Positions 5,846 to 61,968 of a stretch of DNA of 64,000 nt are shown here, in pieces. The stretch is taken from contig CAZQVT010000001.1 of the NCBI GenBank assembly GCA_964596875.1, forward strand, positions 42,514 through 106,513, written 5' to 3'. The number at the start of each line of letters is the position of its first letter. Position 1 is the stretch's first letter. Made by a program: the position numbers and the translations under genes. Below the pieces are notes generated by a model. The model had not been told where the DNA came from and searched no databases. It was given only the letters and a program-made list of their open reading frames with translations. Source of the DNA: an uncultured Candidatus Saccharibacteria bacterium. Lineage in GTDB: Bacteria; Patescibacteriota; Minisyncoccia; Phycocordibacterales; DATDWN01.

Positions 5846-6712
5846 ATGAAAACATTAAAACAAACAGTACTCGAAGCACGAGAGAAAAAGGTTGCAGTCG
5901 GACATTTTAACATTTCTAACTTAGAGGCTTTGTGGGGGATTTTCAAGGCAGCACAAAGTCTAAACGTTCCAGTAATTATCGGAGTTTCAGAAGGCGAAAG
6001 AGATTTTATTGGAGTAAAACAAGTTGTGGCACTGGTGAAAAGTATTCGTGAGGAATACGACTATCCTATATATCTAAATGCTGATCATACTTATTCTTTT
6101 GATAAAGTTAAAGAAGCCATAGATGCTGGTTTTGATTCTGTTATTGTAGACGGCGCAAAACTTTCTTTTGAAGAAAATGTAAAAATGACAAAACAGTGCG
6201 TGGAGTATGCGCGCGCTTGTGGTAGAGAAGTTTTGGTAGAAGCAGAACTTGGTTACATCGGTCAGTCATCAAAAGTTTTAGATGAAATCCCGGAAGGTGT
6301 AATGCTCGACGAAACATCTCTTACAGATCCAGCAAAAGCAAAAGAGTTTGTAGATGCTACAGGTATAGATATGCTCGCTCCTGCAGTAGGGAACTTTCAC
6401 GGCATGCTTCGCTCTGGTGTTGACCCGAAACTAAATATAGAAAGAGTAAAACAAATCGCCGACATAACAGGGATTCCTCTAGTTCTTCATGGTGGTTCAG
6501 GAAACTCTGGAGATGACTTCAAACAGTCTATTGCAAATGGTATCGCTATAGTTCATATAAATACAGAAATTCGTTTAGCATTTAGAGATGGAGTGAAAAA
6601 GTTTCTACAGGAAAACCCAGACGAAGTTGCACCTTACAAATTCCTAAAACCAGGAATGCAGGCAGTACAGGAAGTGGTAACAAATAAGTTGCGACAGTTC
6701 AATAATTTGTAG
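5846..6712 (+). CDS. fba: class II fructose-bisphosphate aldolase
   Basis: VAVGHFNISNLE...LHGGSG...class II FBA/tagatose-bisphosphate aldolase signature; 288 aa. Confidence 0.85.
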   Translation: MKTLKQTVLEAREKKVAVGHFNISNLEALWGIFKAAQSLNVPVIIGVSEGERDFIGVKQVVALVKSIREEYDYPIYLNADHTYSFDKVKEAIDAGFDSVIVDGAKLSFEENVKMTKQCVEYARACGREVLVEAELGYIGQSSKVLDEIPEGVMLDETSLTDPAKAKEFVDATGIDMLAPAVGNFHGMLRSGVDPKLNIERVKQIADITGIPLVLHGGSGNSGDDFKQSIANGIAIVHINTEIRLAFRDGVKKFLQENPDEVAPYKFLKPGMQAVQEVVTNKLRQFNNL

Positions 6713-6731: not shown

Positions 6732-6846
6732 TTTTTCAGACCACTCACTCTCTCCTGCGGAGAGTTCGCTTATCCTCGGCATCCAACCGTCAAGAACGGG
6801 GTGCCTTGACGGAGCCAAGCTTGGAAGTCTGCGGAGTCTGAAAAAT
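6732..6846. repeat. 115-nt intergenic repeat, copy A (TTTTCAGACC...TCCGTCAAG-aacggggtgc-CTTGACGGA...GCGGAGTC); family R1
   Basis: Near-identical core shared with 22527..22641, including the 9-bp-stem hairpin CCGTCAAGAACGGGGTGCCTTGACGG. Flanked by direct repeat CTCATTCGTTA (6717-6727 / 6856-6866). Confidence 0.7.
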
Positions 6847-6896
6847 ATTACTAACTCATTCGTTACTAAACTCATATTTTAAGAGCGGATTTTAAT

Positions 6897-6925
6897 ATTG
6901 ACATATGTAGTATAATGTGCTATAC
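6897..6925 (+). promoter_or_regulatory. sigma-70-type promoter TTGACA-17-TGcTATACT driving micro-island 1
   Basis: ttgacatatgtagtataatgtgctatact; same architecture as promoters of other islands and of housekeeping genes. Confidence 0.55.
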
Positions 6926-6939
6926 TTATACAAGTTAAA

Positions 6940-6987
6940 TTGTTCCAAGAAAGTGCTTATTTTGAGCCATTTCTTGGAACAATTTCG
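6940..6987 (+). promoter_or_regulatory. perfect 15-bp-stem hairpin in the predicted 5' UTR of island gene 7021..7335
   Basis: AATTGTTCCAAGAAA-gtgcttattttgagccat-TTTCTTGGAACAATT, immediately after predicted TSS and before AGGAGG RBS. Confidence 0.5.
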
Positions 6988-7020
6988 TTAACCGTTCCTT
7001 TCACCGCCCTAGGAGGCAGC

Positions 7021-7335
7021 ATGCAGAACTTCATGGTCAACGTCGTCACCTCGTCGGTTCAGTATCCCGTCGAGAATCCGAGGCTCGATCCGATCTTCGA
7101 CATGAACCAGACCATCCTCCTCCAGTTCGGGCCCTGCTCGAAGGCGGAGGGTGACGCTGTCGCGGACCGCATCAACGCATGGGTTCGTGGTGGCGAAGGT
7201 CGTGGTGCGGCTGAAGCCTTCCGTATTCTGGGACTGGATCAGAGAACGAAAGACGTCTGGGCATCCTGCGACGAAATCCCAACCGCGGGCATCTCGGAAC
7301 TCATCAAAAAGTTCCAGGTGGAAATCCCCGTTTGA
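7021..7335 (+). CDS. hypothetical protein, high-GC island gene (104 aa)
   Basis: AGGAGG RBS 7 nt upstream; GC3-rich codons (gtc/acc/tcg/ggc) unlike host; ORF track 6940..7335 extends upstream but ATG 7021 has the RBS. Confidence 0.5.
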   Translation: MQNFMVNVVTSSVQYPVENPRLDPIFDMNQTILLQFGPCSKAEGDAVADRINAWVRGGEGRGAAEAFRILGLDQRTKDVWASCDEIPTAGISELIKKFQVEIPV

Positions 7336-7526
7336 TCCACGTAACGATCCGTCTCTGGCGCGTCAGCCCAGTATCGTCCGAGGAAGTCATATATTCCTCG
7401 GACTTCCTTCAGAGAATTTAATTCTTAATTAAATGTTCTGAAGGAACGAACAGTTCCATCAAAGTAATTAAACTTTTGATTTCTTTGATGGGACAATTCC
7501 GTCCCTGTTCTTTTAGGAGGTTACCG

Positions 7527-7715
7527 ATGAAAGTTTACATCGTCATGCAGCAGGACCCACACGGAGAGGGTTCGCAGATCATGGGGGTGTACTTGGATAA
7601 GGCGAAAGCCGATGCCGAGGCCGCTGCCATGGTTCACACCATTGCCGTGGACGACGAGGGGCAGGATGTGGAGGTGTGCACTGGAGGTGTGGTAGAGCAT
7701 GAGGTAATCGAGTAA
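7527..7715 (+). CDS. hypothetical small acidic protein, high-GC island gene (62 aa)
   Basis: TTTTAGGAGGttaccgATG RBS; GC3-rich codons; MKVYIVMQQDPHGEG... Confidence 0.45.
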   Translation: MKVYIVMQQDPHGEGSQIMGVYLDKAKADAEAAAMVHTIAVDDEGQDVEVCTGGVVEHEVIE

Positions 7716-7911
7716 GGTAAGTCGTCAGTCTCATTAGGTAACTGACGTAAAAGGGAGTTAAGCTACCCGCCTGCCATGGCAAAGTGCTGATGACCTGAAT
7801 CGGGCGCTCGGAGAGATCCAGCGCCTTTTCGTTTGTAAGAAATACTACTAACAAAATTTTGTTGAGCCATAATTTTTATGGAACATCGCGGAGTGAGTGA
7901 ATAGTGAGTGA

Positions 7912-22526: not shown

Positions 22527-22641
22527 TTTTTTCAGACCGCTCGTTCCGCCTGCGCTTCACTCACTTTGTCCTCAACCCAAATCCGTCAAGAACGGGGTGC
22601 CTTGACGGAACCAAGCTTTGGGTTTGCGGAGTCATCAAAAA
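22527..22641. repeat. 115-nt intergenic repeat, copy B (family R1)
   Basis: TTTTTCAGACCgctc...ATCCGTCAAGAACGGGGTGCCTTGACGGAACCAAGCTTTGGGTTTGCGGAGTC; aligns along full length with 6732..6846. Confidence 0.7.
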
Positions 22642-22742
22642 GTTTTAGTTCAACGCAACACAAATACAATAATTTTTTTACATACAAAAACCCCTGACCT
22701 GGCCCCACATATTGCGTGGGGCTCCTGGCCGGGGCGCGCGAG

Positions 22743-23012
22743 TTAGTTACTCGCATGGTATGAGGTGTAGAGTGGTGGGTTTCTGCAGATCTCGAACCTC
22801 ATCTCGAGATCCTGGTACTTCTTGTTCAGGTTGTTATACTTTCCTCCGATGTCTTCAAGGATGCCTCGTTGCTGGTCCAGCACCACACTAAGTGCTTCTG
22901 AGCTTTGCTTGAGCTCCTTGATCTCTTCGAGGTTGGGGTACGACCACGCAGTGACACTTACTCCCACTGCGATTCCGAGACTGAACACGAGGCCTACTGC
23001 GAGGTATCTCAT
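22743..23012 (-). CDS. small secreted/membrane-anchored coiled-coil protein, GC-enriched island gene (89 aa)
   Basis: GGAGaaagtgtccATG RBS; signal-like MRYLAVGLVFSLGIAVGV; own TTGACA promoter at ~23045-23075 (minus) and hairpin terminator 22700-22725; ORF track extends to 23060 but internal start has the RBS. Confidence 0.45.
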   Translation of the reverse strand: MRYLAVGLVFSLGIAVGVSVTAWSYPNLEEIKELKQSSEALSVVLDQQRGILEDIGGKYNNLNKKYQDLEMRFEICRNPPLYTSYHASN

Positions 23013-23144
23013 GGACACTTTCTCCATGCAATACTGTAATGTATTTTGTGTAATTGTCAATATGGTATTGTACTAAATTTGCTTGTTTGTACCCTTAAAA
23101 TTTGCTATAATTTGCAAGTAAAATTAACTAAAAATACTTTAAAT

Positions 23145-27632: not shown

Positions 27633-28883
27633 TTATTTTTTTAATTTAATCTCTTCTTGTAATTTAAATACAAGTTCTTCTGGTGTTAGTTCAAACTTTT
27701 CTCCAGATCTAGACTCTAGAGTTACAACTCCTTTTTCTATCTCCTTATCTCCTATTACAATCCAGTAAGGCAATTTATTTGTTTTTGCCTCGCGAACCTT
27801 TGTTCCTAGGTTCTGGTCAGCGTTGTCTAGGTCTGTGCGAAGTCCAGCATTTACCAAAGCCTTGTTTATTTCCTCAGCTTTTTCGTTATGGTTTTCACGA
27901 ACGGGGATAACTTTTACTTGAACTGGTGAAAGCCAAAGAGGCAAGTTTCCTTCAAAGTGTTCAAGTAAAACTGCAGTACATCTTTCTAGTGAGCCTGTTA
28001 TCGCAGAGTGGATCATAACGATTCTTTCTTTTTCACCTTTTTCATTTACGCAAGAAAGGTCAAATCTTTCTGGAAGGTTCATGTCTAGTTGTATTGTTGC
28101 AACTTGCCACTCTCTACCTGCAGAGTTTTTTGCCATGAAGTCTAGTTTTGGTCCGTATAGTGCGGCTTCACCCGGTCCTTCAAAATAGTCTGCTCCACGT
28201 TCCTCTGCGATACTTCTAAGTTCTCCTTCGGCCATATCCCAGATTTCTTTTGTGCCCAAATATTTCTGAGGTTCGCTCATATCTCGGAAAGAAAGTCTTA
28301 CGCGAAGTGTAAACCCGAATGCTTTGTAGAATGTATCAACAATATCCCAGATTTTTAGAAACTCATCTTTGATCTGGTTTGTTCTACAGAAAACGTGCGA
28401 GTCATCTTGTGTAATAGAAAGTACACGAGTAAGTCCGCCTAGTTCACCAGACTGTTCGTCTCTGTAAACCATTGTTGTCTCTGCATATCTTTGTGGCATT
28501 TCTCGGTAAGAGTGAGGTTTTCGAGCAAAAATCTGAGTGTGGTGCGGACAGTTCATTGGCTTCATTGCGTATTCTTTTCCTTCTCGAGAAGTTATTCGGA
28601 AAAGTTCTTCAGAAAATTTATCCCAGTGTCCTGAAGTCTGGTAAAGTTCTTTTTTTGTTATGTGGGGGATAGTTACTCGGCTGTAATTGTGTTTTGAACG
28701 AAGTGACCAAACAAATTTATCTAGCTCTTCACGAATAATACTTCCTTTTGGGGTCCATAAAGGTAGTCCAGGACCAACTAGTTCTGAAAATGTAAATAAG
28801 TCTAGTTCTCTTCCTATGACTCGGTGGTCATTTTTGTCCAAACCAACTTCGTTATTTTTTTCTTCTTTCATATTTATTAGCAT
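27633..28883 (-). CDS. thrS: threonine--tRNA ligase, catalytic + anticodon-binding domains only (no N-terminal editing domain)
   Basis: MNCPHH zinc site, class II motifs, C-terminal anticodon-binding fold; 416 aa. Confidence 0.8.
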   Translation of the reverse strand: MLINMKEEKNNEVGLDKNDHRVIGRELDLFTFSELVGPGLPLWTPKGSIIREELDKFVWSLRSKHNYSRVTIPHITKKELYQTSGHWDKFSEELFRITSREGKEYAMKPMNCPHHTQIFARKPHSYREMPQRYAETTMVYRDEQSGELGGLTRVLSITQDDSHVFCRTNQIKDEFLKIWDIVDTFYKAFGFTLRVRLSFRDMSEPQKYLGTKEIWDMAEGELRSIAEERGADYFEGPGEAALYGPKLDFMAKNSAGREWQVATIQLDMNLPERFDLSCVNEKGEKERIVMIHSAITGSLERCTAVLLEHFEGNLPLWLSPVQVKVIPVRENHNEKAEEINKALVNAGLRTDLDNADQNLGTKVREAKTNKLPYWIVIGDKEIEKGVVTLESRSGEKFELTPEELVFKLQEEIKLKK

Positions 28884-28956
28884 AGCACAACACTAGGCTT
28901 TTCTGCGATACATTGACATAATCCATAAATGGTTTATTGTGTTTTAGGGGGGGCGC

Positions 28957-39542: not shown

Positions 39543-39561
39543 AAAGTTTTATAATTTTGAG

Positions 39562-39598
39562 TTGCAAAAAGGGCGGTCGCTGTTGCGCCGCCCTTCTG
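39562..39598 (-). terminator. rho-independent terminator (minus strand) for island gene 39619..39864
   Basis: rc GAAGGGCGGCGCAACAGCGACCGCCCTTTTTGCAAC. Confidence 0.6.
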
Positions 39599-39618
39599 GC
39601 TGTGTGAGCTCGCCACGT

Positions 39619-39864
39619 TCAGTGGGCGAGTGACAGTCGGAAGATCCGAACGGGGAAGAGCATCGGCTCGGTGTCACTTCTCATGACTGCCGGGCCGAAG
39701 GGTGTTCTTGAGATGACGACGCTATCGCCACACTGATCTCGCACGACTGCGCGTACGAACAGGCATCTGTCCGCCCCACAGACGATCTCGACCGCTCCGA
39801 AGGGGTGAATCTGATTGACTACATCCCCCGGTGACAGTGTTACCGCTCCTTCGGGCATGCTCAC
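39619..39864 (-). CDS. hypothetical protein, high-GC island gene (81 aa; GTG start)
   Basis: TTGGAGGcccaatGTG RBS; GC3-rich; TTGCAA-17-TGcATAAT promoter at 39870-39905 (minus). Confidence 0.4.
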   Translation of the reverse strand: MSMPEGAVTLSPGDVVNQIHPFGAVEIVCGADRCLFVRAVVRDQCGDSVVISRTPFGPAVMRSDTEPMLFPVRIFRLSLAH

Positions 39865-39916
39865 ATTGGGCCTCCAACGAAGTATTATGCAATAGTATCA
39901 AATATATTGCAAGTAA

Positions 39917-43639: not shown

Positions 43640-43732
43640 AAATCATAAAAAAATAGAGGAGTGGAAACTAGGTAAAGGCAAAAAATAACTCCTACAGAAA
43701 AACCCGCGAGTGCGACAGAGTTTCTCTGCCGC

Positions 43733-43912
43733 CTACGCGGGCTGGAGCTCGTTGACCTTTCTGGTCTTGAGCCGTGCTTTTGCTTGTTTTCTTTTGACCT
43801 CACTCATCATCCTTTCTTGCTGTATCTCTGCGATGATTGCGTCGAGTCTGCCGAGCATTCGTGCTCCCCAGAGTCTTTCGCGGATGATCTGCTCTTTTGC
43901 TTGTCGAGTCAT
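43733..43912 (-). CDS. small highly basic coiled-coil protein, high-GC island gene (59 aa; below ORF-track threshold)
   Basis: AAGGAGGccatATG RBS, TTGACA-17-TATATT promoter 43925-43960 (minus), hairpin terminator 43700-43735; MTRQAKEQIIRERLWGARMLGRLDAIIAEIQQERMMSEVKRKQAKARLKTRKVNELQPA. Confidence 0.45.
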   Translation of the reverse strand: MTRQAKEQIIRERLWGARMLGRLDAIIAEIQQERMMSEVKRKQAKARLKTRKVNELQPA

Positions 43913-44037
43913 ATGGCCTCCTTATCCACCTGCAATTAATATACAGTAAATACTGTATATTGTCAAATTTGAGAAAGGCCGCGCTCCTCTCGGTTCGCGG
44001 CCTTGTTCGGGTGGGGGACTTTCTCGTCCCCGCCGGT

Positions 44038-44421
44038 TTACTTCTTTCGCTTCTTCCTCGCTTTCTGCTTGCGCGCACTTCCGATAGTAGTGCTGCTACC
44101 CAGCCACCGTTTGGGACTGAGTTTGGCGAGTTCCATCACGCACATGAAGGCGTAGATGGTGACATCGCCCACATGCTTGAACGAGTCGAGGTCCCAACAC
44201 TTGACCGCCTTGGCCATCGCCCCGACTGTCTTGTACTGGGAGTAGTGTCTCTTCACCACCTTGTTCAGGCGGGTGACGGCGGAGGTGTGTCCGCACTCGA
44301 GCTTCTGGTTCACCTGCCGGCGAGTCAGTTTGAACTCTCCGATGGTTAGAACCACCGCGTTCTGTCTGTCGGCGTAGGCCTTGCTTACCGGATGTCTGAA
44401 ACCCTCACTCTTCCTCGGCAT
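44038..44421 (-). CDS. hypothetical basic protein with KKRKK C-terminus, high-GC island gene (127 aa)
   Basis: CGGAGGGcatcaacgaATG RBS; consensus promoter TTGACA-aatatgttgtatgtgc-TATAAT at 44430-44480 (minus); GC3-rich. Confidence 0.45.
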   Translation of the reverse strand: MPRKSEGFRHPVSKAYADRQNAVVLTIGEFKLTRRQVNQKLECGHTSAVTRLNKVVKRHYSQYKTVGAMAKAVKCWDLDSFKHVGDVTIYAFMCVMELAKLSPKRWLGSSTTIGSARKQKARKKRKK

Positions 44422-44524
44422 TCGTTGATGCCCTCCGATTAGTATTATAGCACATACAACATATTTGTCAAGTATAAAATATAACAAATTGTTTTGAATT
44501 TTTTATATCTGTTACAATGTTTCA

Positions 44525-47342: not shown

Positions 47343-47425
47343 TAAAATATATAAAGTGTGTTATTGTAACTCTCGCTACTTTTACGACATAAAGTCGATA
47401 CTTGCTAGCATGGAGTTCTTTCTCA

Positions 47426-48295
47426 ATGATGAAGCGTCTGCTCCTCCCCGTCTTCACCGCGATCCTCATGATGCCGTCGCTCGGCTTCGCTCAGGGCACC
47501 GTCGTCTTCTCGAACCTGCCGTCGCCCACGCCGGGCAACATCCCGTCCTTGGGCTACCAGTGCTGCTCGGTCTCCGAGTTCGGCGACCGCGTGCACCTCG
47601 AGGCCGACACGCCCCGGCGTGCCAGCAGCGCGACGGTTCTGATGTCGTCGTGGTCGCTCCACTCGAACTACCCGACGATGTCCGCGGCCGGCTACAAGCA
47701 CCCGATCACGCTCGCGGTCTACGCGAACGACGCGGCGGCCCTGGCGCATTCGCCCTTGGCAACCGTGACCCAGATGATGGACATCCCGTGGCGGCCCGAG
47801 GCCGACCCGACCTGTCCCGGCGGGACGGCATGGCGCGCAACGAACGGCCAGTGCTACAACGGCATGGCCTTCACGCTCACGTTCGACCTGCGCAGTCTGA
47901 ACCTCACGCTCCCGGACGAGTTCGTCTGGGGTGTGGCGTACAACACGCAGACCTGGGGCTACAACCCGCTCGGCGTCGCCGGCCCGTACGAGTCGCTCAA
48001 CGTCGGCACGACCGCTTCGGCGCCGTCAGTCGGCGTCGATGTGGATCCGGACGTGGCGTACGTCAACTACGCCGTGGCGGGGTTCTACTCCGACCTCGGC
48101 GCGGGTGGCACGAACACCTTCCGCGCCGATACGGCATGGACGGGATTCGCTCCCTCGGCGGAGTTCACCACGGTTGCCGTTCCGGCGACCACCGGTGAGT
48201 GCAAGAACGGAGCCTGGCAGAACCTGGTCCGGCGTGACTTCACGCCGTTCAAGAACCAGGGAGCCTGCGTCTCCTACGTCAACACCGGCAAGTAG
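47426..48295 (+). CDS. secreted hypothetical protein, very high-GC island gene (~65% GC, 289 aa)
   Basis: signal peptide MMKRLLLPVFTAILMMPSLGFAQG; extreme GC3 bias (ccg/ggc/acg/gtc); followed by CGGCGGTCCtcagGGACCGCCGCTTTTTTAT terminator. Confidence 0.5.
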   Translation: MMKRLLLPVFTAILMMPSLGFAQGTVVFSNLPSPTPGNIPSLGYQCCSVSEFGDRVHLEADTPRRASSATVLMSSWSLHSNYPTMSAAGYKHPITLAVYANDAAALAHSPLATVTQMMDIPWRPEADPTCPGGTAWRATNGQCYNGMAFTLTFDLRSLNLTLPDEFVWGVAYNTQTWGYNPLGVAGPYESLNVGTTASAPSVGVDVDPDVAYVNYAVAGFYSDLGAGGTNTFRADTAWTGFAPSAEFTTVAVPATTGECKNGAWQNLVRRDFTPFKNQGACVSYVNTGK

Positions 48296-48401: not shown

Positions 48402-48430
48402 ATAGTGTCAAAGAGTCTCTTTGACACTAT
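48402..48430. repeat. perfect 29-nt palindrome ATAGTGTCAAAGAGtcTCTTTGACACTAT (REP-like) at 3' end of transposase gene
   Basis: self-complementary; second copy of core at 49041..49063. Confidence 0.8.
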
Positions 48431-49031
48431 AGTTCAAGGTTTCATGCTTAAAATCATTAATATTTTTAAATTTATTAAGAACAAAATCAGTTGTTATGAA
48501 TGAAAGGTTTCTGTTTTTTAAATAATCATTGTAACTACTCCAAATATATTTATAAGGGTTATCAGTAATTTTATCTTTTACTGGATTCATATGAATATAT
48601 GCAGTTGTCCATAAGAGTTGCGAGTCACTTTCAATCATTGTTGCTTTAAAACAGTCCTGAAATAGATGCCCAATTTTTTTGTATTTTTGATTTATGTACT
48701 TTGAATAACTCGTACAGACTTTCGAAACCAATTTTGAAATGGGCACGTCACTTAACTGTTCTATTAATAAATGAAAATGATTTGGCATTAGACAAAATGC
48801 GTGAATCTGAAATTGATTCTTGGCACCATAAATCCTAATTCTTGAAAATGGAACCGTAGTTAGATTATTTTTATTTAATTCTTTTGAATCTATTCCGAGA
48901 GCGAGCCCAAGTCTATATAGAAATGCTCTATAATCTTGTGGGTCTAAAAATATTCTTTCTTTATTATTTCCTCTATTGTAAATATGAGCTACTATACCCT
49001 GATCAAAATTTTTATAGTCCCTTTTGTTCAT
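48408..49031 (-). mobile_element. IS200/IS605-family Y1 (HuH) transposase, REP-associated tyrosine transposase (RAYT)-like
   Basis: HuH motif LMPNHFHLLIE and catalytic-Tyr motif TAYIHMNPV (RAYT YIHxNPV); 207 aa; flanked by palindromes at both ends. Confidence 0.7.
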
Positions 49032-54453: not shown

Positions 54454-54502
54454 GTTTGATTTTGGGGAAGTTTTGTGGGTAAATACTGTGTGGGGAGGTG
54501 GC

Positions 54503-54721
54503 ATGGGGCTCATCGCTAATCTCGTTTCGTGGTCTGAGGCTGTGTCGTGGGTGTGGCAGGTGTTGCCCGGATGGGCACAGAAGTACCTGATCTTCCACAT
54601 CTGCTGTGTGGCGGCGTGTACCATCTGGGTCTGTAACAGCTACCGAACGACTCGCAGGTTGCCTCAGAACTACAAAGTTCTGGGTGACCCGTACAAGGTG
54701 CAGCTTCCGAACGTGAAGTAG
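54503..54721 (+). CDS. small hydrophobic protein, high-GC island gene (72 aa)
   Basis: GGGGAGGtggcATG RBS; ORF track start 54473 lacks RBS; GC-rich versus flanks. Confidence 0.4.
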   Translation: MGLIANLVSWSEAVSWVWQVLPGWAQKYLIFHICCVAACTIWVCNSYRTTRRLPQNYKVLGDPYKVQLPNVK

Positions 54722-55005
54722 TCTCGGCCTCGACTGTTGTTGTGCAAAAGGTGTGTGTCGTTACGGCACCGCCTTTTTGTTATACAAAAATAAAAAGTGA
54801 TATAATCTAGATATGACAAACAGAACAACAAAAAATAGTTTTACTACATTAAACACAGGTAGCAAAAAAAGTGGAAAGAGTATGAGTATAAAACCGAAAA
54901 TGAAAGGTAAGGCACCACGACCAAGCAGAACTAACGGATAAAATAAAAACTTGTGATATAATATTTTGTATAAATTATTAAAATTATTATTTAACTAAAT
55001 AAAAT

Positions 55006-55335: not shown

Positions 55336-55560
55336 AACAAGTAAAATTGACCAAACGAGCATAATTGGCTTAGGTGCTAGGCGTCAGAAATTTTATGAGC
55401 GAGGCGTACAAATAGTACGGTGAGTGAATAAAATTGAATGACAACAACGCAGATGAGTCAATTATGCTCGTTTGTAATGAAAGGTCCGTACTGGCGTCTC
55501 AAAAGTCAGTACGGATTTTTCTGTACTAATCGGGGTTCAATTAAAAATAATCAAAAAATA

Positions 55561-56820
55561 ATGAAAACAAATAGATTAGTATTTTCTAAAATTTCTGCAG
55601 GGGCTTTGGTTTCAGCAATGGCACTTTCAGCACTTATATATGGTACTGCTTTTGCGGCAACTACGCCTTCAGTAAATGTGTCTATAAACAACGAAAGTAA
55701 TGCAAATGTAACTTCTGTTCCAGTGGGAACTGTGGTTCATTTGAACACATCTGTTTCTTCATCTACTGGTCCGGTGGCTACTGGAACTATAGATTTTAGT
55801 TCATACGCAAACACGACATGTTCTGGTACTGCAACAGTACAAACTGGTGTGGCACTTGTAAACGGTGGTGCAAATTCTGCAACAACAACTGTTGGCTCAA
55901 ATGGGCTTTCATACAAAGCTTCATATGTTGCAACAGGTGATGTGTACTCATCTACAACAAGTTCATGTGTTTCAGTGCAGGCAGTTTCAACTGGTGTAAC
56001 TTTGAACACAACACTTTCTACTACAACAGTAGTTCAAGGAACAAGTGTTTCTCAAAGTTCTGCGCTAAATGGTGCCACAGCAAACGCAACAGGTACTGTT
56101 AGTTATGGTTTTTACACAAACAACTCATGTTCAGCTAACAGAGTTTTAGCAGGTGTAAAAAATGTTTCAAGCGCAGTTGTGCCACAATCTGACTTAGTTC
56201 AGTTCAACACAGTGGGAACTTTTTACTGGCGAGCAGACTATAGTGGAGACCAGTTCAATAATGCAGTAAATGGTCCATGCCAAACATTGTCAGTGCTTTC
56301 AAGTTCAACACCAGTTACTCCAACTCCGGTTGGTCCAGGTTCACTTTCAGGAACTGCATACAATGACCTGAACAAAAACAGAACAAGAGACAATGGGGAA
56401 GCGGGAATTTCAGGATTCACTATAAAACTTTACGGAGGAACATTTTGGTGGAACTGGGGTAAACCAAAAGCAGTTGCTACAACAACTACTGATGCAAATG
56501 GAAATTATTCATTTACAGGTCTGCAAGATGGTTTGTACAGAATAGAAGAAATAAAACTTAATGGTTGGAACCAAATCTCAAGTGACTATAGATGGGTGCT
56601 CCTAATAAATGGAAAAAGTCTAACTGGTCTAGATTTTGCAAATACTGCAAAAGTAAATGCATCTAGTACGGCGACAACTACACCACCTAGAAAAGATGAC
56701 GATCATAAAAACAAGGGACAAGAAAAGAAAGAGGAACAAAGAGAAAAAAAGATAAACAAACTTTTTGAGAAGATAAACAAAATAGAAAACAAGGGAAAGG
56801 GAAATGGTAAGAATCATTAA
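55561..56820 (+). CDS. secreted Thr/Ser-rich protein with Ig-like repeats and SdrD-B/CnaB-type (prealbumin-like) domain; K/E-rich C-terminal tail
   Basis: signal peptide at internal ATG 55561; SGFTIKLYGG...DANGNYSFTGLQDGLYRIEE matches CnaB/SdrD B-type fold motif. Confidence 0.5.
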   Translation: MKTNRLVFSKISAGALVSAMALSALIYGTAFAATTPSVNVSINNESNANVTSVPVGTVVHLNTSVSSSTGPVATGTIDFSSYANTTCSGTATVQTGVALVNGGANSATTTVGSNGLSYKASYVATGDVYSSTTSSCVSVQAVSTGVTLNTTLSTTTVVQGTSVSQSSALNGATANATGTVSYGFYTNNSCSANRVLAGVKNVSSAVVPQSDLVQFNTVGTFYWRADYSGDQFNNAVNGPCQTLSVLSSSTPVTPTPVGPGSLSGTAYNDLNKNRTRDNGEAGISGFTIKLYGGTFWWNWGKPKAVATTTTDANGNYSFTGLQDGLYRIEEIKLNGWNQISSDYRWVLLINGKSLTGLDFANTAKVNASSTATTTPPRKDDDHKNKGQEKKEEQREKKINKLFEKINKIENKGKGNGKNH

Positions 56821-56831
56821 AATCTAAAACA

Positions 56832-56864
56832 AAAACCTCGCAGATATGCGAGGTTTTTGTTTGC
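56832..56864. terminator. bidirectional terminator AAAAACCTCGCAGATATGCGAGGTTTTTG
   Basis: perfect stem CCTCGCA/TGCGAGG with A and T runs. Confidence 0.7.
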
Positions 56865-56936
56865 AAAATTTTGTATAAAGAAAAAGCCGGCGGTCCCCAA
56901 CGAATGGGGACCCCGACTTGTGCGCTTGTTGCCGAC

Positions 56937-57143
56937 CTACTGGCTCGCCTCGACCTTGTACTCGGCCGTCAGGCCACGGACGTAGCCGAGCTGGGCCGAG
57001 ACGGCGTTGAGGCGGGGGACGCTCGGGTCCTTCCACGGCTCGTTGCCGAACATCGGCGGCTCGACGGCCCCCATGGCGACGATCGCGGGATCGACGATGG
57101 CGGGCATTCCGAAGTGCAACTGACGGCTCTGCTGCTTTGACAT
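56937..57143 (-). CDS. hypothetical protein, high-GC island gene (68 aa), divergent from lexA promoter
   Basis: AAGGAGtgacaccgcATG RBS; promoter TTGACA-gatgcagtatagtgtgc-TAAGAT at 57165-57195 (minus); hairpin terminator 56880-56915. Confidence 0.45.
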   Translation of the reverse strand: MSKQQSRQLHFGMPAIVDPAIVAMGAVEPPMFGNEPWKDPSVPRLNAVSAQLGYVRGLTAEYKVEASQ

Positions 57144-57257
57144 GCGGTGTCACTCCTTAACGTACATCTTAGCACACTATACTGCATCTGTCAAGTATAA
57201 AATAAAGAGAAAATTTTATGAAATGAAACTTTTCCACAGTTTTATTTTGCTGTTTAT

Positions 57258-57290
57258 TGACCGGTGAACTATAGTTCACTACAATACAAA
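57258..57290 (+). promoter_or_regulatory. sigma-70 promoter TTGACC-17-TACAAT with embedded LexA (Cheo-type) operator GAACTATAGTTC
   Basis: ttgaccggtGAACTATAGTTCactacaat; perfect GAAC-N4-GTTC palindrome inside the spacer, 250 nt upstream of lexA. Confidence 0.65.
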
Positions 57291-57348
57291 TATAACAAAA
57301 CCAGGGTTTGAAAAATTATAAAAATTATAAAGATAACAAATAAAAAAC

Positions 57349-57540
57349 ATGACACAATTAAATTTGGAAAGATCATTGCGAGCACAACTAGAGACACTAA
57401 ATGATATAATAGACAGGAAAATAGTTAGAGGAGTTTCATACGCACGAGAGGCACGTGAACACAAACAAATTTTAACAAGACTTTCAAATCTAAAAAGAAA
57501 CAGATCTTTGTGGTCATTTAGATCTCTATCACTAGCATAA
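57349..57540 (+). CDS. small ORF (63 aa) between LexA box and lexA; putative SOS-regulated leader/peptide
   Basis: first ORF downstream of the operator-containing promoter; weak RBS; K/R-rich. Confidence 0.3.
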   Translation: MTQLNLERSLRAQLETLNDIIDRKIVRGVSYAREAREHKQILTRLSNLKRNRSLWSFRSLSLA

Positions 57541-57542
57541 AT

Positions 57543-58124
57543 ATGTCTACAGAAAAATATTCATCATATCGCGACAAAATACTTTCTTTCTATCGTACTA
57601 ACAGACGCATGCCTGGGTATAACGAGATCATGCAGATGGTTGGCTTCAAATCCAAGAATGCGGTTTATAAACTCATCAACAAACTAGTTGATGACGAAGT
57701 TTTGGAAAAGGACAGTAACGGAAAACTAACTCCTCTTAAAATTTTTGGAGAAACTCCACTACTTGGTTTGGTAGAGGCTGGTATCCCAACTACAGTAGAC
57801 CAGGACAACACAGAGTCACTAAACCTGGATGAGTATCTTATAGGTCGCAATAAAAATTCTACATATCTTTTAGAAGTAAAAGGCGACTCTATGATAGATG
57901 AAGGTATTCGTGAAGGTGACTTGGTTTTGGTAGAACGCAGAGGCGACCCAAAGGATGGCGACATAGTTATTGCCGAAGTAGATGGTGGTTGGACAATGAA
58001 GTATTTCAAAAAGAAAGGGAATACTGTTTACCTAAAACCTGCAAACAAAAACTATGCGCCCATTTATCCAGCATATGATTTGAAAATTGCGGCAATTGTT
58101 CGCGGAGTAATAAGGAAATATTAA
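57543..58124 (+). CDS. lexA: LexA repressor (S24 peptidase)
   Basis: N-terminal wHTH, C-terminal VKGDSMIDEGIREGDLVLV (Ser nucleophile) and TMKYF (Lys general base); 193 aa. Confidence 0.75.
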   Translation: MSTEKYSSYRDKILSFYRTNRRMPGYNEIMQMVGFKSKNAVYKLINKLVDDEVLEKDSNGKLTPLKIFGETPLLGLVEAGIPTTVDQDNTESLNLDEYLIGRNKNSTYLLEVKGDSMIDEGIREGDLVLVERRGDPKDGDIVIAEVDGGWTMKYFKKKGNTVYLKPANKNYAPIYPAYDLKIAAIVRGVIRKY

Positions 58125-58264: not shown

Positions 58265-58882
58265 ATGAAAAAAAAGTTTTTATACATCGGAGGTCTAGTT
58301 CTTTTACTTCTAGCATATTTTTTCTTTTTTAGTGAAAATAAACAAATAAAGAACTATCCATCTTCTGGTACAGATATCGTTGCCTTTGGTGATAGTCTTA
58401 TACAGGGAGTAGGTGCTACTAGTGAAAACACTAACCTTGTTTCGGTTTTATCTAGACGTATAGGTAAACCAATAGTAAACCTTGGAGTTTCTGGAAACAC
58501 TACAGAGGACGGTTTAAAAAGGTCGGGGGAACTAGATAAATACAATCCAAAAGTAGTTATTGTTCTACTCGGTGGTAACGACTATTTGAGAAAAGTTCCA
58601 ATAGACGACACATTTAAAAATCTTGAAAAAATTATAAAAAATATTCAAAGTCGCGGTGCGGTGGTTCTGCTTCTCGGTGTTCGTGGAGGAATAGTGACAG
58701 ATAAGTTTGATGAAAGGTTTGAGGACTTAGCGGAGAAAACTGGTTCGGCTTTTGTTTCAAATGTTTTAGACGGTTTAATAACCAAAGAAGAGTTCATGTC
58801 TGACCCAATACATCCAAACGATACTGGTTATGCAAAAATTGCTATAAGAGTTTACCCTGTGCTGTATAAGTTAGTTAAATAA
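58265..58882 (+). CDS. SGNH/GDSL-family hydrolase (arylesterase/lipase-like)
   Basis: signal/TM then IVAFGDSLIQG (GDSL block I), GGNDY block III, C-terminal DxxH; 205 aa. Confidence 0.7.
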   Translation: MKKKFLYIGGLVLLLLAYFFFFSENKQIKNYPSSGTDIVAFGDSLIQGVGATSENTNLVSVLSRRIGKPIVNLGVSGNTTEDGLKRSGELDKYNPKVVIVLLGGNDYLRKVPIDDTFKNLEKIIKNIQSRGAVVLLLGVRGGIVTDKFDERFEDLAEKTGSAFVSNVLDGLITKEEFMSDPIHPNDTGYAKIAIRVYPVLYKLVK

Positions 58883-59172
58883 TGAAACAGACTTACAAAT
58901 TTAAAGCTAAAGTTTGGCCGTGGGGAGATGTGGGTTCCTGGTGGTTTGTAAATGTTCCAGAAAAAATCTGTAAGGAAATAAGAAGTAAGTATCCAAAAGG
59001 AATGGTCAGAATAAATGTGAGTTTGGGTAAGTCAAAGTATGACAGCGCCTTGTTTCCAAACAAAAACTCTAAGGGAGAGTTTGGTTACCTTTTGTCCATA
59101 AGGAAAAAAGTTAGGCAAAAAGAAGAAATTCTTGAAAATGATACAATTACAGTGTCTTTTGTAATAGTATGA
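58882..59172 (+). CDS. DUF1905-like small protein
   Basis: FKAKVWPWGDVGSWWFVNVP pattern; 96 aa; overlaps neighbours by 1-4 nt (operon). Confidence 0.35.
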   Translation: MKQTYKFKAKVWPWGDVGSWWFVNVPEKICKEIRSKYPKGMVRINVSLGKSKYDSALFPNKNSKGEFGYLLSIRKKVRQKEEILENDTITVSFVIV

Positions 59173-59423
59173 AAATTCAGGTAAAAGTAAAACCAAACAG
59201 TAAGAAAGCGACAGTGGAAAGAGTTAGCCAACCAACTTTGGACTTGGGTTTGAAAAAAGAAATAGATGTATACAAAGTTTCTGTAAAAGAGCCTCCGGTA
59301 GATGGAAAGGCAAACAAGGCTGTGCTAAAAGCCTTGGCAGAATACTTTGAGGTATCGCAGTCGCAAGTAGGTCTGGTTTCCGGTTCTACAAGTAAAAATA
59401 AAATTTTTGAAATACTAAAATGA
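59169..59423 (+). CDS. DUF167/YggU-family protein
   Basis: VKVKPNSKK...VKEPPVDGKANKAVLKALAEYF...VSGSTSKNK matches YggU family pattern. Confidence 0.5.
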   Translation: MKIQVKVKPNSKKATVERVSQPTLDLGLKKEIDVYKVSVKEPPVDGKANKAVLKALAEYFEVSQSQVGLVSGSTSKNKIFEILK

Positions 59424-59923
59424 AAAAAGTAACTGTTAAAAACAAAATGCAGAAGGGCTACACATACGAACTGCAAGAGCCAGTGGGTAAAAACTTTCAC
59501 AAAGATTTTCAACCAGAACTTACTCCAAAACAAATGTTGGAACTTGGAGTTTTTGGTGGTAAATACATGAATGATGTTTCAGAAACAGACGAGTATCCAA
59601 AAGACTGGTGGAAAAATGCAAAACTTTCTTTGAAAAGAGACCCGAAACTAAATTTGTTTGGAGTAAATGCTAGTCAGCCACTTTCTGTATGGAGAAAGAA
59701 AGGTTGGATAAATGAACAAGACCCACGGGGTTGGTTTGAATGGTACTGTAGATATTATATGGGAAGAAGAACCTTGGACGATGCACGACAAATAAAACGA
59801 TGGAAGGCAATAACTCGTCATATAGCGCAGATTGGGAAAAATTGTAGAGTGGGAGACTTTGCATGCCATACAAAACAAAGACAAGCGGTGCTACACTGGG
59901 CATACGACAGTAGAAAGATGTAA
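59420..59923 (+). CDS. hypothetical protein (167 aa, Trp-rich)
   Basis: ORF in operon-like array; no recognizable motif. Confidence 0.35.
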   Translation: MKKVTVKNKMQKGYTYELQEPVGKNFHKDFQPELTPKQMLELGVFGGKYMNDVSETDEYPKDWWKNAKLSLKRDPKLNLFGVNASQPLSVWRKKGWINEQDPRGWFEWYCRYYMGRRTLDDARQIKRWKAITRHIAQIGKNCRVGDFACHTKQRQAVLHWAYDSRKM

Positions 59924-59924
59924 T

Positions 59925-60194
59925 ATGAAAAAAGAAATTAAAACATTTACTGAAAAAGTTAAGGACGTGGTAAGAAAAATACCCCGTGGAAAAACTATGA
60001 CTTATGCAGAAGTGGCCAAAAAAGCAGGTAGTCCTGGAGCATCCCGTGCTGTGGGAAGTATTATGAAAGCGAACTTCGACCCAAAGATTCCGTGTCACAG
60101 AGTCATCCGTTCGGATGGAAAAGTTGGGGAGTACAACAGAGGTGGAAGCTCAAAAAAACTCGCTCTACTCAAAAAGGAAGGTTGGAAACAGTAG
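59925..60194 (+). CDS. ogt: methylated-DNA-protein-cysteine methyltransferase, short DNA-binding/active-site domain only (Ogt/MGMT C-terminal domain)
   Basis: IPCHRVI (PCHR active site) and preceding helix-turn-helix; 89 aa from internal ATG. Confidence 0.6.
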   Translation: MKKEIKTFTEKVKDVVRKIPRGKTMTYAEVAKKAGSPGASRAVGSIMKANFDPKIPCHRVIRSDGKVGEYNRGGSSKKLALLKKEGWKQ

Positions 60195-60915: not shown

Positions 60916-61314
60916 ATGATAACAATTCTTATCGCAGCGGTAGCAGCATTTGTTTTCGGAGCATTTTGGTTCACAGTGCTTTTTGGTAAGGAGTGGGCAA
61001 GACTTAACGACTTTAATCCTGCTAGTGACGAAAGAGCAAAACAACTAGGCATGGCAAAGCCTTTGTTTGCAAACTTTCTTTCAAATGTGCTAGTGGCTAC
61101 AGTTTTCTACTACATGATAGACCAGATGTTGGTTTACTCATATGCAGGACTACTACGAGTAGTGTTTATTGTGTGGCTTGGCTTTAGTTTTCCAATATTT
61201 GCCAATGCAGCAATATGGGAAAGAAAGAGCTGGAAACTGGTTGCAATTAACTCTGCGCAAAACCTATTGGCGCTGGCTATTATTTCTGGAATCATTTTCA
61301 AAATGCATTACTAG
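60916..61314 (+). CDS. hypothetical membrane protein (4 TM)
   Basis: 132-aa hydrophobic ORF. Confidence 0.4.
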   Translation: MITILIAAVAAFVFGAFWFTVLFGKEWARLNDFNPASDERAKQLGMAKPLFANFLSNVLVATVFYYMIDQMLVYSYAGLLRVVFIVWLGFSFPIFANAAIWERKSWKLVAINSAQNLLALAIISGIIFKMHY

Positions 61315-61393
61315 GTCCCAGACTATATACTATATATAAGCAGAGCCGCCCCGAAGTCCTTGCTAGGACCTCGGGGCGTGTTCGTTGGGGGAC

Positions 61394-61588
61394 TCAGATC
61401 CTCCCCATCAGGATATCGCGTTGAATGAAGGCGTGCCGCACAGCGGTATTCAGGTTCCTTCCGAAACCGATGACAACTCGGTCCATCTTGTCGGTGAACC
61501 TGAAGTACCACCGCATGTTAGGTCCCTGGGGAGAGTTTCCCAGGTACCCGTAGTCACTCTTGGCTATCACTTCTTTGTTTACAACCAC
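61394..61588 (-). CDS. hypothetical protein, high-GC island gene (64 aa; GTG start)
   Basis: CTGGAGGGAGGtgagGTG RBS; GC-rich versus flanks; promoter-like TTGACT-17-TAGTCT at 61600-61640 (minus). Confidence 0.35.
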   Translation of the reverse strand: MVVNKEVIAKSDYGYLGNSPQGPNMRWYFRFTDKMDRVVIGFGRNLNTAVRHAFIQRDILMGRI

Positions 61589-61968
61589 CTCACCTCCCTC
61601 CAGCGCTCTGTAAAAAAGACTACCTATTTAAGGGCGGGGAGTCAAACCCGACTTTTTGGCCAGAAGTCAAACACAGTGTTAATAGTATGTGGATAAGTTT
61701 GTTGACTTTTGTTGACAAAAGTTAACCCTTGACATATACTCTTAGTTGCTTCACATGATTGAGTTTTGGCAGGGGCAAGATAGAATCTAGGGTTTATTCG
61801 GGGTTTAATAGTTCTATACTATTTTGCAGTTCAATCGCTAACAGTTTAAGAGTTTCAAAATAGCCATCCAATGCGGGGATGGTTCGTTTTGTTTGTCTTA
61901 AACTGAGGGTGACTGAAAGCACCTCGAGGTTTTCTTTTATTAATAGTAGGTGGGGTAAATATTATTTT

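Follow-up and report, generated by a model that had tools for sequence, protein, structure and literature searches.

How is lexA, the gene for the SOS repressor, controlled in the small genomes of the Patescibacteria, and what is the short gene that precedes it? To address this question we examined a stretch of 64,000 nucleotides (nt) from an uncultured bacterium deposited as Candidatus Saccharibacteria (contig CAZQVT010000001.1, positions 42,514 to 106,513 of the forward strand). This whole stretch is referred to here as the window. Its lexA locus, that of a Parcubacteria bacterium with a tiny genome, contains, in order, a DnaA-box-like motif, a promoter that holds a LexA operator, a gene for a protein of 63 amino acids (aa) and lexA itself. 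That these form one unit, an operon autoregulated by LexA and furnished with a small protein and a DnaA box, we regard as probable. This judgement applies to the architecture as a whole and not to the exact role of the small protein.

The −35 hexamer of the operon, TTGACC, lies at 57257..57262 on the plus strand; it was read in the sequence and recovered by a promoter scan. The −10 hexamer, TACAAT, lies at 57280..57285 on the same strand. The 17-nt spacer between them, ggtGAACTATAGTTCac, is filled by the operator, GTGAAC-TATA-GTTCAC (57264..57279, plus strand), a perfect palindrome of 16 base pairs (bp) whose core, GAAC-N4-GTTC, occupies 57266-57277. An initial annotation of this DNA had already recognized a −35/−10 pair with 17-nt spacing, and GAAC-N4-GTTC within the spacer. 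Both observations stand, with two corrections: the promoter coordinates given there (57258-57290) are a few bases off those determined here (57257-57285), and the true palindrome is longer, 16 bp and not 12. Transcription would be expected to start near 57292, leaving a 5′ untranslated region of about 57 nt.

Does the palindrome function as an operator? Counts within the window do not speak for it. The bare GAAC-N4-GTTC 12-mer occurs three times against 1.1 expected, a number reached in 13 of 100 shuffled sequences, and the 16-mer with up to two mismatches is not enriched. The significance of the operator therefore rests on its conservation across loci. Related loci were gathered in two ways, through homologues of the small open reading frame (ORF) and through a LexA scan of a genome collection, from which the best 80 of 561 confirmed relatives were taken. 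The comparative set comprises 61 non-redundant Parcubacteria-type loci with LexA proteins 52-94% identical, 946 kb in total. Neither arm, GTGAAC or GTTCAC, shows a single change in any of the 61, and the N4 at the centre takes many values. There is exactly one perfect 16-mer per locus, at the promoter of the lexA operon, and it always lies between a −35 of TTGAC type (TTGAC itself being kept in most of the loci) and a −10 of TATAAT or TATACT at the same offset.

GAAC-N4-GTTC is an established class of LexA box, and the earlier proposal that it serves as such at this lexA promoter is upheld by the invariant arms and free centre. Judged by so clean a phylogenetic footprint the operator is autoregulatory, and LexA is, from the class of the box, the protein predicted to bind it. 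More distant lexA genes (Syntrophales, a Chloroflexota metagenome-assembled genome) carry TAGAAC-N4-GTTCTA in the same spacer position, so placement of the operator in the spacer is an old design, of which this lineage has its own flank variant. We envisage that a strong promoter of the sigma-70 type transcribes a two-gene SOS operon, encoding first an α-hairpin protein and then LexA, and that a LexA dimer seated on the 16-bp palindrome between −35 and −10 would exclude RNA polymerase, giving negative autoregulation. The first ~13 nt after the −10 hexamer (57286-57300 in the window) are also conserved across loci, for example as AAAAACATAACAA or N5-(C/T)ATA(A/C)(C/A)A. This block may be start-site context or a further regulatory element.

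Is the second product of the operon really LexA? The gene (57543..58124, plus strand) encodes 193 aa. A Pfam search finds Peptidase_S24 (PF00717) at residues 72-184 (1.4e-28), and the TIGR00498 lexA equivalog model is matched over residues 18-192 at 116.7 bits, a modest margin above its cut-off of 110.95. Its alignment with the LexA structures of E. coli and Thermotoga begins at residue 15-22 and extends to the C-terminus. By this alignment the cleavage site is Ala79-Gly80 (in E78-A79-G80), and the catalytic residues are Ser116 (in G114-D-S116-M) and Lys153 (in M152-K153); A79-G80, S116 and K153 line up with the E. coli VAAG, GMSM and VKRL motifs. Both members of the catalytic Ser/Lys pair are thus present, and the earlier description of a canonical LexA is borne out by the S24 domain, the equivalog cut-off and the alignment together. 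We hold it very likely that the protein is LexA and that it regulates its own synthesis through the 16-bp operator. As membership of the family suggests, DNA damage would generate RecA filaments that stimulate self-cleavage of LexA at Ala79-Gly80, by means of Ser116 and Lys153, and the operon would be derepressed.

The initial annotation also considered an intact SOS regulator to be uncommon in very reduced genomes. In this lineage that generalization fails. The Parcubacteria/Paceibacteria (Zambryskibacteria, Taylorbacteria and others) supply the top LexA matches, with dozens of species among the best 80 of the 561 relatives. LexA is common, not rare, in this clade. Several contigs bearing the Parcubacteria-type module have been deposited under Nitrospira sp., Bacteroidales, Gammaproteobacteria and Candidatus Saccharibacteria, which suggests mis-binned or mislabelled contigs of metagenome-assembled genomes.

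What other signal might reach this promoter? Alignment of the promoters brought out a second motif, overlooked in the initial annotation. The 9-mer TTTTCCACA (57230..57238, plus strand), 18 nt 5′ of the −35 hexamer, resembles a DnaA box: it differs from TTATCCACA at one position and conforms to TT(A/T)TNCACA, the consensus as quoted in PMC6015884. Every one of the 61 loci has the TTATCCACA motif, without mismatch in 39 and with a single one in 22, always on the operon strand. Its 3′ end lies 6-27 nt from the operator, at 6-8 nt in 7 loci, at 13-17 nt in 39 and at 24-27 nt in 15. In random 70-nt windows of the same loci a perfect match is encountered in 0.5% and a single mismatch in 1.9%, hence one mismatch or fewer in 2.4%. 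Loci retrieved through the small ORF contain the motif as well, in a few loci (L040, L062 and L024) it is repeated, with two or three copies in tandem or inverted, and it is absent from the outgroup lexA promoters examined.

We think it reasonably likely, from the form and conservation of the 9-mer, that DnaA binds it. If so, DnaA bound 5′ of the −35 hexamer would most likely modulate the same promoter, tying the output of the lexA operon to the status of replication. Such dual control has precedent, since DnaA and LexA jointly repress uvrB, recN and dinJ of E. coli (PMC6015884). As at those genes, a DnaA box and a LexA box meet at one SOS promoter, allowing a dual input; the differences are that the promoter here is lexA's own, that the boxes are adjacent rather than overlapping, and that the arrangement is fixed throughout the clade. 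Might the 9-mer instead be the target of some other clade-specific regulator, or an upstream promoter element? Most loci have a single box, whereas DnaA often prefers pairs or arrays, and successive spacing classes differ by about 9 bp, not by 10.5. These features speak for the alternative, yet we rate it as distinctly the less probable: the near-universal DnaA-box consensus is exact in 39 of the 61 loci, the others being no more than one base away from it, tandem and inverted copies do occur, and the E. coli promoters show DnaA at work beside LexA.

We turn to the first cistron, which encodes the 63-aa protein (57349..57540, plus strand), a basic α-hairpin protein of an uncharacterised family. 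Neither this gene nor lexA has a recognizable Shine-Dalgarno site, and lexA starts 2 nt past the stop codon of the small ORF. Since lexA lies so close and lacks a ribosome-binding site of this kind, it is probably translationally coupled. The small protein would be translated first and lexA then with it, so that both products are made together. Comparison with the orthologue in locus L002 gives 6/2/16 substitutions over the three codon positions and a ratio of nonsynonymous to synonymous divergence (dN/dS) of 0.14, beside 0.15 for a flanking gene. Wherever the small gene is found (about 53 loci) it is directly upstream of lexA, even where the neighbours differ, and over 52 loci the spacing of the two genes mostly falls between −4 and +14 nt. 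Distant members with 33% identity and quite different neighbours are again followed directly by the S24 gene, behind the same promoter architecture. Purifying selection, the 2-nt gap and synteny all favour the earlier view of the ORF as a co-transcribed gene, and we have little doubt that it is a real, co-expressed protein.

Insertions occur within this operon. L002 has about 110 nt extra in the 5′ leader (about 241-345), and L022 has a 147-nt element with long inverted repeats, resembling a miniature inverted-repeat transposable element, between the small ORF and lexA (about 5854-6000). In both loci the operon is intact. An end sequence akin to that of the L022 element (...GTGTGCGGATAAA) is found upstream of the L024 promoter.

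What kind of protein is it? The product is 62-78 aa long in 52 species-level loci, among which M1, N18, I21, D22, I25, Y31 and H38 are invariant and G28, E34, A35 and K39 nearly so; G28 is invariant in a deeper alignment of 117 sequences. Eight close homologues are present in the database. A profile search of a collection of 5.8 billion proteins yields 374 homologous clusters, all annotated 'hypothetical', whose named sources are Patescibacteria. An exhaustive search of 1.84 billion representatives with a hidden Markov model reaches only 357 proteins at E ≤1e-3, nearly all 48-110 aa long. None of the 52 family members matches Pfam. The initial annotation had called the small ORF uncharacterized, which the family searches, all without a match, confirm; it was unaware of the conservation of the gene throughout the clade. 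The AlphaFold2 model, built from 117 sequences, is a two-helix hairpin (helices 3-27 and 32-61, predicted local distance difference test score 88) with a less certain C-terminal tail. In the alignment this tail, of some 10-12 residues, is hydrophobic or aromatic in most members. The polar patch near the tip of the hairpin (N18, D22, Y31, E34, H38, K39), together with the hydrophobic tail, suggests that the protein binds a partner.

What might the small protein do? That it acts within the SOS or replication-stress circuit seems to us somewhat better than an even bet. As to its role there, we tentatively prefer that of an accessory factor to the SOS switch, with LexA or RecA as its target. It could accordingly be a component of the switch shared by the whole clade, with LexA or RecA, or possibly DnaA or the replisome, as its binding partner, though we would not put this above the other roles taken together. 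The second option, which we hold a little less probable, is a short-lived checkpoint effector, an SOS-induced inhibitor of division or replication analogous to SulA, YneA, SosA or SidA. The small protein is the only product other than LexA placed directly under the operator; it is small and specific to the clade, and its hydrophobic tail might act as a degron or as a helix that targets the membrane. Operons of lexA and sulA exist in Pseudomonas. On the other hand, the alignment contains no hydrophobic segment of transmembrane length, there is no match to known inhibitor families in Pfam or NCBIfam (neither a SulA domain nor LysM), and co-translation with LexA at a basal, autoregulated level would be awkward for a toxin unless it were very unstable.

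Less likely than an accessory factor is a nucleic-acid binder that resembles a shortened bS20 and is induced by DNA damage. The family has a local likeness to the C-terminal helix-turn-helix of bS20, in the pattern ID-K-x3-G-L-x-Y/H-x2-x-A-R-H-K-x-L. Profile matches in the Protein Data Bank have E of about 0.6, E. coli S20 matches one family member at E 0.0066, and hhalign returns a probability of 17% over 30 columns. The small protein lacks the N-terminal helix of S20, there is no Pfam S20 match, and the search that gathered the 357 proteins does not reach S20. The resemblance is weak, far below significance, and unproven. A kinship with YnzC (DUF896/UPF0291) of Bacillus, known from structures 2HEP and 3BHP, was also considered. 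That protein, of the SOS regulon and likewise without an assigned function, is also small, helical, LexA-controlled and syntenic with lexA, but it is encoded in the divergent yneA operon and not on the lexA transcript. Kinship was rejected, as hhalign assigns it a probability of 0.1% and no DUF896 match is found in Pfam.

Could the effector of the locus be the gene that points the other way? On the minus strand at 56937..57143 lies a gene for a 68-aa protein of unknown family, in an island whose local guanine-plus-cytosine (GC) content is 0.60-0.69 against a window mean of 0.39. In Gram-positive bacteria yneA, sosA and chiZ lie divergent to lexA. The island gene, small and fast-evolving, is similarly placed head-to-head with the lexA operon, the two −35 hexamers being about 60 nt apart. 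However, its own promoter, TTGACA-17 nt-TAAGAT with a TG extension (57166..57194, minus strand; −35 and spacing kept in L002), has no LexA box, and more than 100 nt separate the inferred start of the island transcript from the only operator, which lies upstream. Between the SdrD-like gene and the lexA promoter, the content of the slot varies among relatives. A loose family (motifs GFQT and PW-DP-VP-L) fills it in the window, L002, L003, L005 and L010, and perhaps in L014 and L028; an unrelated family fills it in L007 and L009, though the LexA of L009 is 94% identical to that of the window; other small ORFs are found there in L011, L012, L021 and L023, and most of the clade has nothing comparable. 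Unrelated genes thus occupy the slot where LexA is 86-94% identical. The island gene itself has a dN/dS of 0.85 with substitutions spread evenly over codon positions (15/11/14). A role as SOS effector is, on this evidence, very unlikely.

Nor can the island gene be regarded as a fixed part of the locus, as the initial annotation had it, for close relatives carry unrelated small genes or none and its promoter is without an operator. On our reading it is cargo that varies between genomes and is exchanged laterally, foreign and of high-GC origin, and it stands apart from the SOS unit. The same annotation was right that the ORF is coding. Its GC content by codon position is 0.65/0.43/0.93, a signature that the overlapping alternative frames do not have. 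Besides its own promoter it has a Shine-Dalgarno site, AAGGAG (57158-57153), nine nucleotides from the ATG, and an intrinsic terminator made of a GC-rich hairpin (GGGGTCCCCA / TGGGGACC) and a T-run (56880..56915, minus strand; kept in L002 and L003). A bidirectional terminator at 56827..56862, a hairpin with a 16-bp stem flanked by A- and T-runs, closes the SdrD_B-domain gene at 55438-56820 and backs up the island gene; it too is kept in L002. The L002 orthologue of the island protein is 68% identical and retains the Shine-Dalgarno site, start codon and terminator hairpin.

Where did the island come from? Pfam, NCBIfam and PHROG give no family match for its protein; the gene has no phage or plasmid match and a single database homologue. 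A search for a donor in metagenomes found no relative in a first scan and one chance match in a second. An assembly chimera is ruled out, as a stretch including the island is base-for-base identical to an independent Logan contig over 5,589 bases, and syntenic islands are present in several relatives. A structured RNA was also rejected: Rfam shows nothing above noise and the z-score of the fold is only −3.15. The third-position GC content (GC3) of 0.93, the Shine-Dalgarno site and the conserved ORF length favour a coding island. Its synonymous divergence is low (dS 0.26 versus 0.45 and 1.06 in the flanks), and there may, given this, be some constraint at the RNA level. The persistence of GC3 near 0.9 is, like the low synonymous divergence, puzzling. 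A separate question, that of gene flow into the genomes of the candidate phyla radiation (CPR), is raised by the high-GC cargo genes dispersed over this AT-rich genome.

What, then, weighs against the LexA-autoregulated module described above? The Pfam model of the DNA-binding domain, LexA_DNA_bind (PF01726), reaches only 12.7 bits, short of its cut-off of 23.7, even though the stretch from residue 15 to 70 can be aligned to the N-terminal domains in solved structures of LexA and falls inside the TIGR00498 match. The DnaA-box copy in the window is off the strict consensus at one position, and the relaxed 9-mer is found 10 times in the window. The small protein has no match in Pfam, NCBIfam, PHROG or the sequences of the Protein Data Bank, and Foldseek returns generic hairpins only, with E >1. 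Neither the 64-kb window nor the flanks of related loci, about 0.9 Mb, contain a second operator, recA, uvrA and dinB being outside that sequence. A terminator scan finds no clear terminator 3′ of lexA. Finally, all mechanistic steps proposed for this uncultivated lineage rest on homology or conservation.

The weak detection of the N-terminal domain, with the HTH_36 match listed in one relative, might be taken to point to a repressor from a prophage or mobile element in place of the cellular LexA. We judge this very improbable. The protein passes the equivalog cut-off of TIGR00498; the gene sits in a stable chromosomal setting in dozens of species, with housekeeping neighbours and without phage genes; and the small partner protein has no PHROG links. 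Least credible of all is that the 63-aa ORF arose by chance or is a leader peptide of irrelevant sequence, as its shortness, missing Shine-Dalgarno site and missing family annotation might suggest: it is already contradicted by the absence of frameshifts or stops in about 55 loci, and the dN/dS and codon-position pattern, the seven invariant residues among sequences only 25-30% identical, the 357 cluster representatives and the confident fold prediction all speak against it.

How far does control by LexA extend beyond the operon? As no second operator was seen, control by LexA may be confined to its own operon; the flanks readable in this comparison amount to at most 10 kb per relative. The other two 12-mers of the window, at 27794 and 55727, fall inside coding regions, and the related flanks, over 701 kb, hold nine more, none of them placed as in a promoter. 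Among the products encoded in the window are DnaE, GyrB, SMC, a Pif1-like helicase, PheT, RNase R and enzymes of sugar metabolism, and none of the genes in the window other than the lexA operon carries the operator; dnaA is absent from the window.

The lack of a clear terminator after lexA leaves room for read-through into the genes downstream. In the window (58265-60194) and in the close relatives L001, L003, L004 and L007, lexA is followed by a conserved run of genes on the same strand, encoding a GDSL hydrolase, DUF1905 and DUF167/YggU proteins, an unknown protein of 167 aa and a DNA_binding_1 protein of the methylguanine-methyltransferase type; L007 adds a purine DNA glycosylase. Read-through past lexA would put alkylation-repair genes under the operator. 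The downstream genes change in more distant relatives. In L065, a lexA locus without the small ORF, a gene divergent from the operator (~5930, minus strand) encodes 227 aa with the N-terminus MCGR..., which we take, from recognition of the sequence and not from a family search, to be an SRAP/YedK-like protein.

At least a dozen further GC-rich patches are scattered over the window (GC 0.51-0.58 versus 0.39), often between long genes. They include 6732-7825, 22529-23030, 28931-29754, 34197-34566, 36653-37236, 39548-39891, 43677-44443, 54461-54779 and 61310-61610. The strongest island, at 47402-48295 on the plus strand (GC 0.65, GC3 0.90), is an ORF of 297 aa with its own GC-rich terminator; the protein has an N-terminus like a signal peptide and belongs to no Pfam family. 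Adjoining it is an IS200-like Y1 transposase gene (48408-49031, minus strand). The possibility that the islands are copies of one mobile element was rejected, as the patches are not repeats of each other. A hairpin element of ~45-60 nt (CCGTCAAGAACGGGGTGCCTTGACGGA.CCAAGCTT...GCGGAGTC) occurs at ~6787-6830 and at ~22583-22626, both inside GC-rich patches. The two copies are 97% identical over 36 nt and have no Rfam match at the gathering threshold.

How does the lexA locus compare with systems already known? The Cheo box of B. subtilis DinR/LexA is CGAAC-N4-GTTCG. With the Gram-positive type of LexA system the locus shares the GAAC-N4-GTTC core, an operator within the lexA promoter that serves autoregulation, and a repressor of the S24 Ser/Lys type with an Ala-Gly site. 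It differs from that type in the fixed flanks GTGAAC/GTTCAC, in the position of lexA as second cistron behind a small gene, and in the presence of a DnaA box. Also close, as far as citations of it reveal (PMC7739468, PMC8565304), is the SOS network of the Patescibacteria, on which a comparative-genomics study has been published that covers this superphylum and this regulator (Sanchez-Osuna, Barbe & Erill 2017, Environ Microbiol 19:3465). Because of that study, LexA and some LexA motif in CPR bacteria may be counted as already in the literature. The GTGAAC-N4-GTTCAC form, the small upstream gene and the DnaA box at lexA did not come up in full-text literature searches, in which the 2017 study is represented by its citations only.

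Which parts of this are new? Autoregulation of lexA through GAAC-N4-GTTC is textbook knowledge, LexA in CPR bacteria is, by those citations, published, and nothing here overturns SOS biology. Apparently undescribed are the conserved partner of 63-78 aa that is always ahead of lexA and the clade-wide DnaA box at the lexA promoter. Two proteins and an 80-bp promoter make up the module, which is easily synthesized and tractable in vitro without cultivation. That it is fixed in genomes of ~0.6-1 Mb in which regulators are scarce suggests a compact circuit joining replication and damage signals. If this is true, the DnaA box, the LexA box and the small protein would constitute a three-part module that wires together the status of replication initiation and DNA damage.

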